Of a stretch of 29,045 nucleotides of DNA, positions 9,297 through 28,284 are shown piece by piece. The notes beneath the pieces were generated by a model that was given only the letters and a program-made list of their open reading frames with translations, searched no databases and was not told where the DNA came from. Position numbers and translations under genes: made by a program. This DNA comes from a virus (taxonomy: Duplodnaviria > Heunggongvirae > Uroviricota > Caudoviricetes). The DNA is taken from positions 1-29,045 of IMG/VR virus record IMGVR_UViG_2579778652_000007, one strand, 5' to 3'. The number at the start of each line of letters is the position of its first letter. Positions within the stretch are counted from its first letter, which is position 1.

Positions 9297-9313
9297 AAAA
9301 TTATTAGTGCAAT
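9297..9313 (-). promoter_or_regulatory. C1-repressor operator-like 17-mer (ATTGCACTAATAATTTT on minus strand; 15/17 to ATTGCTCTAATAAATTT)
   Basis: Located in the divergent intergenic region 9225-9370. Confidence 0.5.
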
Positions 9314-9370
9314 TTTGGTTGTGAAATGTATCATTCTGCCCTTAAGTAGGTTCTTCATGAGGAAACAAAA

Positions 9371-9616
9371 TTGGCAGAGCGTGTTGATGATGCAGAGCTG
9401 AGCATGAATCAGTTAGAAGCTCTCAAAGACATGGCCATCGATAACATCAGAAAGCAGGCACAGGTCGTGAGCCAGGTATTTACAGGGAAGTGTCGTTACT
9501 GCAATGAATCGATTGAATCAGGCATTTATTGTGACGCTGAATGTGCGCAATGGCACAGGGAAGAGCAGGCTGCAAAACAGCGTAAATATGGCATGCGACC
9601 GGCAGGATTTGACTGA
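9371..9616 (+). CDS. Small zinc-finger protein (four-Cys, TraR/DksA-like spacing uncertain)
   Basis: TTG start with GAGG 8 nt upstream (alternative in-frame ATG at 9404); CRYC...CDAEC motif. Confidence 0.5.
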   Translation: MAERVDDAELSMNQLEALKDMAIDNIRKQAQVVSQVFTGKCRYCNESIESGIYCDAECAQWHREEQAAKQRKYGMRPAGFD

Positions 9617-9618
9617 TT

Positions 9619-10197
9619 ATGTTGCGCTTTACTGAGGAAGAGTTTCAGGCTTTTAGTGAGCGTCGAAATAAGGGGCGGTCCAGGCCAAAAACCAAAAAGG
9701 ATCCATTCTTATCGCTTGCGCCGGTAAAAGAAGTTTCTCCACATGCGAAGGCACTTGCAGCACTGGCAAAGAACCCCGACCTGCGCGACGGAAATTGCGA
9801 GCACTTCGAGCAGGTTTTCATTTTTGATTACTTCGAACGCAAGCACCCTGACATCTATGAGCTGTTGCATGCAACGCCTAACGGAGGGAAACGTTCAAAA
9901 GCAACCGCCGGGAAAATGAAGGCTGAAGGGCAGAAAAAAGGTTATCCGGACATGAGTCTCGATAAAGCATGCGGTATTTATCACGGCATGCGAATTGAGC
10001 TTAAAGAACCAAATGGTAAAGCCCCGACGAAAGAGCAGATCGCCTGGATGCGCAGGCTTAGAGAGGAAGGTTACTACGTCGTTCTTGCGTATGGTGCAGA
10101 ACAAGCGATAACCGCCATCCTGGAATACATAAGCCTTAAAAAGGGTGAGGCTATTGAGCATGTATTGAACGGCGACAAGTGGTTGTATGCTACGTGA
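9619..10197 (+). CDS. VRR-NUC domain nuclease (PD-(D/E)xK superfamily)
   Basis: 192 aa; HATPNGGKRSKATAGKMKAEGQKKGYPDMSL...IELKEPNGKAPTKEQIAWMRRLREEGYYVVLAYG matches VRR-NUC core. Confidence 0.75.
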   Translation: MLRFTEEEFQAFSERRNKGRSRPKTKKDPFLSLAPVKEVSPHAKALAALAKNPDLRDGNCEHFEQVFIFDYFERKHPDIYELLHATPNGGKRSKATAGKMKAEGQKKGYPDMSLDKACGIYHGMRIELKEPNGKAPTKEQIAWMRRLREEGYYVVLAYGAEQAITAILEYISLKKGEAIEHVLNGDKWLYAT

Positions 10198-10263
10198 AAT
10201 AATAAATTAATTAGTGCATGTGTGCTCTTTGATATAGCGCACATTAACATCGGGAGAATAATC

Positions 10264-10419
10264 GTGTCATCCAAGGCTAATTATGAATCGCTGGCATCGA
10301 TCATGCCGCGTAATGAACAGGAAGCAGATGCTGTAGTGGACCCGGTAATCGCTGAAATGAATGCTCGCCTGGAGGCTGAATTTGCAGCTGAGAATGAACA
10401 TACCACCCAGGGCGACTAG
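10264..10419 (+). CDS. Small hypothetical protein (start uncertain: GTG 10222, GTG 10264 or ATG 10303)
   Basis: ORF-track ORF 10222-10419; RBS GGGAG 7 nt before GTG 10264; acidic, no motif. Confidence 0.3.
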   Translation: MSSKANYESLASIMPRNEQEADAVVDPVIAEMNARLEAEFAAENEHTTQGD

Positions 10420-25002: not shown

Positions 25003-25047
25003 ATTCGACGTTGATTAGTTGACATGGGCTAATCAGTAGGTGACAGG

Positions 25048-25500
25048 ATGTTACTTAACTGGCAGGGACGCCACTTCATGGAAATAAATCACTCACGAAT
25101 AACATCGTACGAGATTGCGGATTACATGATCCGCACTAAATCTCTTCTATCAGCGAAAGAACTCGCAGCAATTCTTGAAAAGGAATACCCGCATCTGGAT
25201 GTCGATAAGCGCGATGTTTATCTGCGCTTAAAGGCTATCGCTGTGTCTAAGTATTCGTCTGTTTTGATTGATGACAGTACACGCCCACGTAGATTTCAGA
25301 TCCACTCTCTGAATCCTGAATTCTTTCGCCGCAGCCGCGCTCCGCGCCGGTTTGATGAAAAACTCCAGAACGAACTCTATATGACGCAGGACGAAAAGGA
25401 ACGCCGGGAGCACCAGCCTTGGGTGATGGCGCGTCAACTTTTCAATAAGGTGGTCCGTCAGCACCGTCATTACGGTAATGCCACATCCGCACGTATCTGA
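25048..25500 (+). CDS. lpa: Putative late-promoter activator (Lpa-like) by position
   Basis: 150-aa basic ORF immediately upstream of pacA and downstream of an operator-overlapped promoter; alternative start ATG 25078; no direct motif. Confidence 0.5.
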   Translation: MLLNWQGRHFMEINHSRITSYEIADYMIRTKSLLSAKELAAILEKEYPHLDVDKRDVYLRLKAIAVSKYSSVLIDDSTRPRRFQIHSLNPEFFRRSRAPRRFDEKLQNELYMTQDEKERREHQPWVMARQLFNKVVRQHRHYGNATSARI

Positions 25501-25586
25501 TTGATTGCTTGCCCGTTCCGGGCCTTTTGACATGTGACTTTCGTTACCCTCGCGTCAAAAAGAGTTTTATACGAAAGGAAGCATAA

Positions 25587-26780
25587 GTGACCTGGGACGA
25601 TCACAAGAAGAATTTTGCTCGCCTGGCGCGAGATGGTGGTTACACCATCGCACAATATGCCGCCGAGTTTAATCTCAACCCAAACACCGCACGTCGTTAT
25701 CTCCGTGCATTCAAAGAAGACACCGGAACAGCGGACAGCCGTAAGCCAAATAAGCCTGTCAGAAAACCACTAAAAAGCATGATCATTGATCACGCTAATG
25801 ATCAACGTGCAGGTGATCACATTGTGGCTGAAATGGCTGAAAAACAAAGAGTTAATGCTGTTGTCAGTGCCGCAGTCGAGAACGCGAAGCGCCAGAATAA
25901 GCGCATAAATGATCGTTCTGATGATCATGACGTGATCACCCGCGCCCACCGGACCTTACGTGATCGCCTGGAACGCGACACCCTGGATGATGATGGTGAA
26001 CGCTTTGAATTCGAAGCGGGCGATTACCTGATAGATAACGTTGAAGCGCGGAAGGCCGCGCGCGCTATGTTGCGTCGTTCCGGAGCTGATGTTCTGGAAA
26101 CCACTCTTCTGGAAAAGTCTCTTTCTCATCTCCTTATGCTGGAGAACGCCCGGGATACGTGTATTCGCCTGGTGCAGGAAATGCGCGATCAGCAAAAAGA
26201 CGATGATGAAGGTACTCCGCCTGAATACCGTATCGCGAGCATGCTAAACAGCTGTTCCGCGCAGATAAGCAGTCTGATCAACACCATTTACAGCATCCGG
26301 AATAACTATCGAAAAGAAAGCCGGGAGGCGGAAAAGCACGCTTTGTCTATGGGGCAAGCTGGCATTGTTAAGCTGGCATACGAACGAAAGCGTGAAAATA
26401 ACTGGTCAGTTCTGGAAGCGGCTGAATTCATCGAGGCGCATGGAGGGAAAGTGCCGCCCCTGATGCTGGAGCAAATCAAAGCCGATCTGCGTGCTCCTAA
26501 GACAAATACCGATGATGAGGAAAGGCAAACTGCCGTCGGTGGCCCTTCTCTTGAAGATCTGGACAAAGTTGCGCGAGAACGGGCCGCCAACCGCCGCGCC
26601 GATGCCGCATTGTGGATTGAGCAGCGTAGGGAAGAAATCGCCGATATCGTTGATACAGGCGGTTATGGAGATGTTGATACTGAAGGTGTATCAAACGACC
26701 CATGGCTGGAACAAGACCTGGACGAAGACGAGGAGGAAGATGAAGAAGTTACCCGCAAGCTATACGGGGATGATGATTAA
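25587..26780 (+). CDS. pacA: Terminase small/pac-recognition subunit (PacA-like)
   Basis: 397 aa; GTG start with AAGGAAG RBS; gene contains the pac hexamer cluster; acidic C-terminus. Confidence 0.8.
25781..25967. other. pac packaging site: clusters of TGATCA/G hexamers, each containing GATC
   Basis: Left cluster 25781-25786, 25788-25793, 25800-25805, 25815-25820; right cluster 25911-25916, 25923-25928, 25934-25939, plus 25962-25967; about 90 bp between clusters. Confidence 0.8.
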
Positions 26781-28264
26781 TGGCCAGAAGTTGCGTAACG
26801 GATCCACGTTGGCGCGAGCTGGTGGCGCTATATCGTTATGACTGGATTGCTGCCGCTGATGTTTTGTTCGGCAAAACACCTACCTGGCAGCAGGATCTGA
26901 TTATTGAGTCTGTGCAGGAACAGGGTAGCAAGACATCTGTTTCGTCTGGTCACGGTACCGGGAAATCAGACATGACTTCTATCATGATCATGTTGTTCAT
27001 AATCATGTATCCCGGTGCCCGCGCCATTATCGTTGCGAACAAAATTCAGCAGGTAATGACCGGTATATTCAAGTACATCAAGATAAACTGGGCTACTGCC
27101 ACCAGCCGTTTTCCATGGCTTGCTGATTATTTTGTTCTGACAGAAACCGCTTTCTATGAGGTTACTGGTAAAGGTGTATGGACTGTAGTACCGAAGGGCT
27201 TTCGTCTGGGAAGTGAAGAAGCTCTCGCCGGTGAACACGCAGATCATCTTCTGTATATTATCGATGAAGCCTCCGGTGTCAGTGATAGAGCTTTCGGTAT
27301 CATCACCGGTGCTCTTACCGGACAGGATAACCGCATCTTATTACTGTCACAGCCTACACGCCCAAGCGGCTATTTCTACGATACTCACCATAAACTGGCC
27401 AAGCGTCCTGGTAACCCTGATGGCGTTTATACGGCGATCACGCTTAACAGTGAGGAATCACCGCTGGTAACGCCAGCATTTATCAAAATGAAGCTGGCGG
27501 AGTACGGCGGGCGCGATAACCCTATGTACATGATTAAGGTACGCGGCCTATTCCCTAAATCACAGGATGGCTTCCTTCTTGGACGTGATGAGGTTGAACG
27601 TGCAACGCGGCGGAAAGTCAAGATTGCCAAAGGATGGGGCTGGCTTGCATGTGTGGACGTTGCTGGTGGTACGGGAAGGGATAAGTCCGTTATCAATATC
27701 ATGATGGTGTCCGGCCAGCGAAACAAACGCCGTGTAATCAACTATCGAATGCTGGAATACACAGACGTTACAGAAACGCAGCTTGCCGCCAAAATTTTCG
27801 CAGAATGTAATCCTGAGCGATTCCCAAATATCACCATAGCGATAGACGGCGATGGCCTGGGTAAAGCAACAGCGGATCTGATGTACGAGTATTATGGTAT
27901 TACCGTACAGCGTATACGCTGGGGTAAAAAGATGCATAGCCGTGAAGATAAGAGCCTGTACTTTGATAAACGTGCTTATGCCAACGTTCAAGCCTCAGAG
28001 GCCGTAAAATCTGGTCGTATGAGACTGGATAAGGGTAATGAAACTATTGAGGAAGCGTCGAAAATCCCTGTAGGGATTAACTCCGCAGGTCAATGGAAGG
28101 TGATGAGTAAGGAGGATATGAAGAAAAAACTCAACCTGCACTCACCAGACCATTGGGATACATATTGTTTCGCTATGCTGGCGGATTATGTTCCCCAGGA
28201 TGAAGTGCTTAGCGTCGAAGACGAAGCGCAGGTTGATGAAGCTCTGGCATGGCTTAATGAGTAA
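26780..28264 (+). CDS. pacB: Terminase large subunit (PacB-like)
   Basis: 494 aa; Walker [10 protein letters not shown], Walker [11 protein letters not shown]; ATG overlaps pacA stop (TAATG). Confidence 0.85.
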
Positions 28265-28267
28265 AAA

Positions 28268-28284
28268 CTTGCTCTAATAAATTG
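28268..28284 (+). promoter_or_regulatory. C1-operator-like 17-mer CTTGCTCTAATAAATTG (15/17)
   Basis: Begins 4 nt after the pacB stop. Confidence 0.55.

Follow-up and report, generated by a model that had tools for sequence, protein, structure and literature searches.

The window analysed here, a stretch of 29,045 nucleotides (nt) comprising positions 1 to 29,045 of the IMG/VR virus record IMGVR_UViG_2579778652_000007, belongs to a P1-like phage-plasmid (Punavirus) and carries dispersed copies of a 17-mer which, with a probability that we estimate at about 90%, are operators of a P1-type C1 repressor. An initial annotation had noticed six copies and likened them to the C1 operator of P1. Five of the six proved to be positional orthologues of sites listed as 'protein_bind: phage repressor C1' in the P1 record AF234172, and a seventh operator, Op83/Oppp (10204-10220, minus strand, four mismatches to the consensus), had been missed. 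The remaining copy, at 28268, has no counterpart at that position of P1, where only 24 nt, with no operator, separate pacB from the end of c1. Because it aligns with the P1 immI control region and is followed by C4, icd and ant in that order, we take it to be an Op51-type operator at the head of an immI cassette that is both additional and relocated, the only feature not on the published P1 map. The operator map is otherwise the published regulatory map of P1 and is already known: C1 of P1 recognizes 22 asymmetric operators that are dispersed and share this consensus, and lpa is among the lytic genes that it represses; its binding is strengthened by Lxc, Coi and Ant1/2 antagonise it, and C4 RNA represses Ant synthesis (PMC8546580).

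From ban to pacB the window is ~98% identical to P1 by megablast, and likewise to P7, SJ46, RCS47 and hundreds of Escherichia and Salmonella plasmids, with a shared gene order (plp/ban, tail genes, pmg genes, phd-doc, lpa, pacAB). Local alignment with P1 AF234172 was colinear over 3452-15348 and 21635-28264, and P1 features were transferred to the window by this colinearity, with the GenBank annotation AF234172/NC_005856 as reference. Colinearity is broken by a replacement at 593-1182, a small insertion at 3164-3451, a cassette at 15349-21634 and all sequence 3′ of the pacB stop codon.

The consensus ATTGCTCTAATAAATTT was matched with three mismatches or fewer at exactly six places in the window, against 0.14 expected from 100 dinucleotide-preserving shuffles (maximum 1). 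Coordinates and strands of these six agreed with those first reported, at 14 to 16 of 17 positions, with 2, 3, 3, 1, 3 and 2 mismatches in order along the window. We further scanned both strands with a weight matrix made from the 11 P1 operators that have no orthologue in the window (Op51, 53, 55, 68, 72a, 72b and 99a-e). The top seven scores, from 26.2 down to 14.9 bits, were the six sites and Op83; in 500 second-order Markov simulations of the window the number of matches at or above 14.8 bits averaged 0.154, with a maximum of 2. All seven sites lie within the non-coding 11% of the window. An eighth match, ATGACACTAAAACATTT at 19498-19514 (13.4 bits), located on the start codon of a cassette open reading frame (ORF), was rejected as being within chance range because the mean top score of simulated windows was 12.6 bits. 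The predicted operators, with their weight-matrix scores where given, are as follows.

9297-9313, minus strand: ATTGCACTAATAATTTT, orthologue of P1 O26/Op82, identical to P1; 25.3 bits
10204-10220, minus strand: CATGCACTAATTAATTT, orthologue of P1 Oppp/Op83, between pmgM and pmgN, identical to P1; 16.7 bits, rank 6
12921-12937, plus strand: orthologue of P1 OpmgRa/Op86a, 2 nt after the pmgQ stop codon, identical to P1; 22.7 bits
12970-12986, minus strand: orthologue of P1 OpmgRb/Op86b, 15 nt upstream of the pmgR start, identical to P1; 21.2 bits
15062-15078, plus strand: ATTGCTCTAATAAATAT, orthologue of P1 OpmgT/Op88, on the last base of the pap stop codon; 26.2 bits, top match in the window
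24961-24977, plus strand: orthologue of P1 Olpa/Op94, identical to P1
28268-28284, plus strand: CTTGCTCTAATAAATTG, operator of Op51 type, starting 4 nt past the pacB stop codon and opening an additional immI-like cassette; 17.8 bits

Positional orthology to a P1 operator holds for the sites at 9297, 10204, 12921, 12970, 15062 and 24961. In P1, Op82, Op83, Op86a/b, Op88 and Op94 occupy the same positions relative to 26/pmgL, pmgM/pmgN, pmgQ/pmgR, pap and pdcB/lpa, on the same strands, and the sole difference from the P1 operator set concerns Op88, in one of its bases and in the cargo downstream of it. By this orthology to annotated sites, operator function is predicted for the window and C1 would be expected to bind there. 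Four sites begin no more than 4 nt from a stop codon, as the initial annotation had pointed out: the TAA of pmgQ ends at 12919 (site 12921), that of pap at 15062, which is also the first base of the site, that of pdcB at 24959 (site 24961) and that of pacB at 28264 (site 28268). The more distant Cronobacter phage JK004 (L087; 74% nucleotide identity in tail genes) lacked an Op82 orthologue at the gene 26 intergenic position and carried the same 17-mer motif in intergenic regions at 1151, 13731 and 16239, including upstream of its ban homologue; the regulon is therefore conserved, but individual sites are not always kept.

The clearest link between a site and a promoter is at Op94. The 24961 copy had been described as overlapping a -35 hexamer upstream of an lpa-like gene, in keeping with the P1 logic in which C1 represses lpa and thereby the late genes. 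Both points held. The hexamer TTGCTA (24975-24980) and the -10 TATTAT (24997-25002) form the promoter TTGCTA-16-TATTAT, which is the annotated Plpa of P1, and the order from C1 to lpa to late genes is that of the annotated Olpa/Plpa arrangement of P1 (PMC8546580). Plpa is also the sole promoter among those considered here that the P1 record lists as established and not as predicted. The gene downstream is the following.

25048-25500, plus strand: lpa, late promoter activator gene, colinear with P1 lpa

Relatives carry an lpa that is 99-100% identical, with Op94 located at -87 from its start in 80 of 80.

We then considered the site at 28268, which aligns with P1 Oc4/Op51 (window CTTGCTCTAATAAATTG, P1 Op51 AATGCTCTAATAAATTT). 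It departs from the consensus by C at position 1 and by G at position 17, and for both of these there is a precedent among the annotated P1 operators (Op83, Op94). The elements that follow it are listed below.

28282-28310, plus strand: predicted promoter of P51a type, TTGTGT-17-TACATT; it shares 3 nt of its -35 with the operator and aligns column by column with P1 P2c4/P51a
28323-28352, plus strand: predicted second promoter, of P51b type, TTGCGC-18-TATGCT, aligning with P1 P1c4/P51b
28359-28437, plus strand: isrK-family leader RNA (Rfam RF01394, 61.9 bits against a gathering score of 50)
28482-28569, plus strand: C4 antisense RNA gene (Rfam RF01695, 77.1 bits against a gathering score of 45)
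28624-28845, plus strand: icd-like gene, 80% identical to P1 Icd over residues 8-73
28842-29045, plus strand: 5′ part of ant (KilAC-type antirepressor), cut by the window end; its ATG at 28842 overlaps the end of icd

The order of elements is the same as in immI of P1 (Oc4/Op51, P51a/P51b, c4-icd-ant1/2), and the operator-promoter stretch aligns base for base; by this likeness both promoters are presumed to function in the window. Two target sites of C4, a1 at 28385-28391 and b1 at 28402-28409, lie in the leader, as does, at 28416-28432, a terminator-like hairpin; a second set of targets, a2 (28574-28580) and b2 (28605-28612), follows the C4 gene, with b2 lying over the icd Shine-Dalgarno sequence AAGGAGG at 28609. 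The a′ loop of C4 is GTTCCAA (28541-28547), complementary to TTGGAAC at 28385 and 28574; the b′ loop is CCTTTGAC (28526-28533), complementary to GTCAAAGG at 28402 and 28605. Since loops and targets differ from those of P1, a different immI specificity is implied. The leader is likewise of isrK type here and of c4-a1b1 type in P1, and the cassette lies between pacB and c1, in contrast to immI of P1 and P7, which lies between sim and kilA/repL. The closest relative has a full-length Ant that shares 56% identity with P1 Ant1, and by this homology Ant is presumed to antagonise C1.

An ant-containing insertion between pacB and c1 has been reported in phage RCS47 and plasmid pTZ20_1P (PMC6906374). 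The window has this insertion too, in an identical location, and is 95% identical to RCS47 over 28200-29045. In RCS47 and in many plasmids with this insertion c1 follows ant. Position 1 of the operator is T in RCS47 and C in the window, and RCS47 has compensatory changes in C4 a′, a1 and a2. In the literature searched, we found no description of an operator or a C4 RNA in the pacB-c1 insertion, though one may exist. In one related record (NZ_AP027490.1; L004 3787-3906, corresponding approximately to window 28486-28605), a 39-amino-acid 'ash family protein' coding sequence of RefSeq overlaps the C4 RNA gene, and here an RNA gene has probably been mistaken for a protein-coding one.

With the Icd of the window as query we collected cassette loci, 80 of which had enough upstream sequence. 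A strong plus-strand operator was found 335-363 nt upstream of icd in 78 of these 80 cassettes, and in a 79th at -567. Its 10-nt core TTGCTCTAAT was kept in 78 of 79 and the P51a-type -10 was invariant in the relatives, while the linker to pacB, operator position 1 and the spacer after the operator varied. The operator was retained although what lies upstream belongs to at least six contexts unrelated to one another, and homology sets in at its 5′ edge. Several immI cassettes on the P1 scaffold (loci L071-L073, L080 and L082-L086) carried two inverted operators in a 33-bp near-palindrome, ATTGCTCTAATAAATTTGATTTATTAGAGCAAA, a geometry unlike that of Op72ab and Op99ab, the bivalent operators of P1, where the overlap is 6 bp.

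We also examined the number and variety of these cassettes. A tblastn search with the window Icd gave 1142 places in 690 plasmid records, and records with a window-type cassette usually hold two or three icd-like places; the pacB-proximal c4-icd-ant cassette seems to be an extra copy. Some IMG/VR contigs also have three icd-like places (e.g. IMGVR_UViG_2698536372_000019; L014, L079, L084). The C4 loops were combinatorial among cassettes (loci L005-L086), with matching compensatory changes in a2/b2 and, in RCS47, for which it was checked, in a1 as well. The window scaffold had CCCTTTGAC or CCCTTTTGC as b′ and GTTCCAA or GTCTCAA as a′, all four combinations being seen; the P1 scaffold had four b′ and two a′ variants. 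In total, the a′/b′ combinations predict at least 11 immI specificities.

Between operator/promoters and c4, two leader types were distinguished, the P1 type, corresponding to Rfam c4-a1b1 (RF03163), and the window type, corresponding to isrK (RF01394); the comparison covered window 28359-28437, L003 1718-1770, L005, L034, L073, L074 and L084. Because the isrK-type leader contains a1/b1 sites, 'isrK' looks here like a functional counterpart of c4-a1b1. One IMG/VR contig (L073) carried two divergent C4 genes ~1.7 kb apart, at 1002-1087 (minus strand) and 2841-2926 (plus strand), each with a c4-a1b1 leader.

Op82 sits in the intergenic region of the divergent genes 26 and pmgL and was kept in 74 of 77 relatives. 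It overlaps predicted pmgL promoters, one of which, a promoter-like TTGATA-16-GAAAAT (9274-9301), was also found by consensus scan and corresponds to the predicted P2pmgL of P1. The predicted PpmgN is followed closely by Op83 and then by pmgN-pmgO-pmgP-ppp-pmgQ; positions 10198-10214 of the window were invariant in 77 relatives, whereas most of the next ~45 nt were polymorphic. The initial annotation had proposed that the copies at 9297, 12921/12970 and 15062 would place a glycosyltransferase module and the accessory cassette under direct repressor control. The module meant is presumably the pmgN-pmgQ block, in which PmgO belongs to a PHROG family labelled alpha-2,3-sialyltransferase and PmgQ to one labelled glycosyltransferase; PmgO and PmgP also gave weak, sub-threshold MptE-like matches. 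As to position the proposal is reasonable for Op82 and more directly for Op83, the operator closest to these genes, downstream of which PmgO and PmgQ are encoded, but the 12921/12970 pair lies after these genes and precedes pmgR and pmgS. We dropped dbn (3452-4426, weak Glycos_transf_1 match) as a candidate for the module because the PHROG matches of PmgO and PmgQ make pmgN-pmgQ likelier. Within the same region (9371-12919), PmgL resembles a DksA-like zinc finger and PmgM a VRR-NUC or Holliday-junction resolvase (PHROG/Pfam). Most of these pmg genes are non-essential in P1 (PMC10695390).

Bases TTGCTC of Op86a (12922-12927) are the -35 of the predicted PpmgR of P1. Between the two operators of the pair lies the following element.

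12946-12973, plus strand: terminator-like hairpin AAAACGTGATG / CATCACGTTTT followed by a T-run

Op86a and Op86b are thus inverted copies flanking the AAAACGTGATG/CATCACGTTTT hairpin, and the 81-nt region with both operators folds at -26.9 kcal/mol (z = -8.4). The hairpin would be the terminator of the pmgL-pmgQ unit. Transcripts arriving from upstream could terminate there and those of PpmgR escape, because the predicted PpmgR start falls inside the hairpin.

The allele of Op88 in the window (ATTGCTCTAATAAATAT, ending in AATAT) is one base off P1 Op88 and equals P1 Op68. Op88 follows pap in 79 of 80 relatives, and both alleles are common (45 and 24 of 80). It overlaps predicted pmgT promoters, and only the first ~90 nt of pmgT remain before the following cassette.

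15349-21634, plus strand: variable accessory cassette of 6.3 kb in place of P1 pmgT-V and upfM-O, with almost no P1 match

Only segments 15581-15689 and 20408-20754 of this cassette align with P1. Its products include Ead/Ea22-like and DUF551 proteins and several of unknown function. The initial annotation had put the accessory cassette under direct repressor control. Its start does lie downstream of Op88 and of the predicted promoters, and this position suggests that Op88 may control the 6.3-kb cassette, some or all of which may be co-transcribed from the Op88 promoter. In 74 relatives (loci L088-L167), Op88 and a leader of 157-290 nt were constant and at least 16 gene sets were found downstream, the change point lying 157-780 nt downstream. 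This cargo region corresponds to 'RD-5' (PMC6906374), and pmgT-V, replaced here, is non-essential in P1 (PMC10695390). Between Op88 and the first cassette ORF, on the minus strand (15111-15133), there is a strong intrinsic-terminator-like hairpin, ACATGCCGCGCCTTGCGGCATGT then TTTTTATTTT. No minus-strand gene lies upstream of it within the window, and it may stop antisense transcription leaving the variable cargo. Of the other breaks in P1 colinearity, the replacement at 593-1182 swaps the tciA-C region of P1 for unrelated sequence, and a 101-amino-acid ORF (phrog_12809, function not known) is inserted between ban and dbn (3150-3455).

A simple model would have C1, in the lysogen, bound to each asymmetric 17-bp site and blocking RNA polymerase by promoter occlusion, the sites being placed over sigma-70 promoters or close behind them. 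Four early units would be silenced in this way: pmgL-pmgQ (Op82, Op83), pmgR-pmgS (Op86a/b), the variable cassette (Op88) and lpa (Op94). With lpa silent, all Lpa-dependent late promoters would be silent indirectly. The 28268 site would repress the P51a-type promoter of the additional c4-icd-ant cassette, the role of Op51 in P1. Upon induction, inactivation of C1 by Coi or Ant would derepress all units together.

Several observations weigh against this reading. The window stops inside ant, so that the element's own c1 would lie outside the sequence seen; it is expected just beyond the window end, and in 53 relatives a c1 with 96.8-99.6% identity to P1 C1 comes immediately 3′ of the cassette's ant. 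The P1 record gives the sigma-70 promoters at Op82, Op83, Op86 and Op88 as 'predicted' only, and most were missed by a simple consensus scan. Op83 may be a weak site, because its operator positions 1, 2 and 5 vary among relatives. The score of the 28268 site is the lowest of the six reported sites other than Op94, and no operator is annotated there in any record examined. The output of the P51a-type promoter is also uncertain, because a terminator-like hairpin lies between the promoters and c4.

Four other explanations were considered. The 17-mers could be random matches to an AT-rich motif in intergenic DNA that is itself AT-rich; the motif is indeed AT-rich and the weak match at 19498-19514 does fall in the range of random sequence, but the counts given above (six against 0.14 for the consensus, seven against 0.15 for the weight matrix), together with sites that are identical to P1 operators and conserved where their flanks vary, leave this explanation with practically no credit. 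They could also be boundary or terminator elements at operon ends, unrelated to repression, as the closeness of four sites to stop codons and the hairpin enclosed by the Op86 pair, with its low z score, might suggest. Yet a single 17-mer is asymmetric, without dyad or T-run, the region of the sixth site folds no better than shuffles (z = +1.24), and terminator-like hairpins elsewhere in the window (e.g. 14503-14531) have no 17-mer. Moreover, these very sequences carry the annotation of C1-binding sites in P1, and Op94 overlaps a promoter -35, not a terminator. We consider this explanation very improbable; the Op86 hairpin is an additional feature and not an alternative to the operators, the Op86 pair being the sole one to enclose such a structure.

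Two further proposals both seem to us unlikely. According to one, the operators double as, or survive mainly as, short conserved 'linker' sequences for module exchange between P1-like elements, and their position at cassette edges reflects recombination history and not regulation. This would fit the icd/ant cassettes, where homology between contexts begins exactly at the operator 5′ edge, and the constant Op88 and leader with different cargos behind. However, the breakpoints after Op88 lie well downstream and not at the operator, the pacB-c1 spacer of P1 has no operator that could have been a target, and the same pattern arises when a cassette comes with an operator and a promoter of its own; the linker idea is besides compatible with repression. 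According to the other, the 28268 site is an unused relic carried in with the cassette, which would be controlled by C4 RNA alone. The site does deviate from the consensus at both ends, and it is followed by a terminator-like hairpin and by a second promoter, of P51b type, that has no operator. On the other hand, its core is nearly invariant among cassettes in which the linker to pacB and the spacer vary, the P51a-type -10 is invariant, and related cassette types carry even two inverted operators there.

Taken further, the 28268 site would be the 5′ boundary of an anti-repressor cassette that is self-contained and mobile, and P1-like elements would hold a heteroimmune arsenal under one C1; we advance this tentatively, at a little less than even odds. 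Such a cassette may consist of a C1 operator, P51a/P51b, an a1/b1 leader, C4 RNA, icd and ant. Cassettes of this kind appear to have been collected in two or three copies at different genomic places, each with a different C4/target specificity.

For annotation, these results mean that the complete P1 early-gene repression map is retained across ban-pacB in this element. Op88 combines hypervariable cargo with a conserved C1-controlled promoter-operator; genes behind it are therefore predicted to have lytic or early functions rather than to be expressed in the lysogen. If the operator at 28268 is functional, the many P1-like resistance plasmids with the cassette would have a second, C1-gated route to prophage induction or anti-immunity. 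If the mobile cassette proposal is true, the anti-repressor switches would all be wired to one master repressor and would probably serve competition between co-resident or superinfecting relatives.

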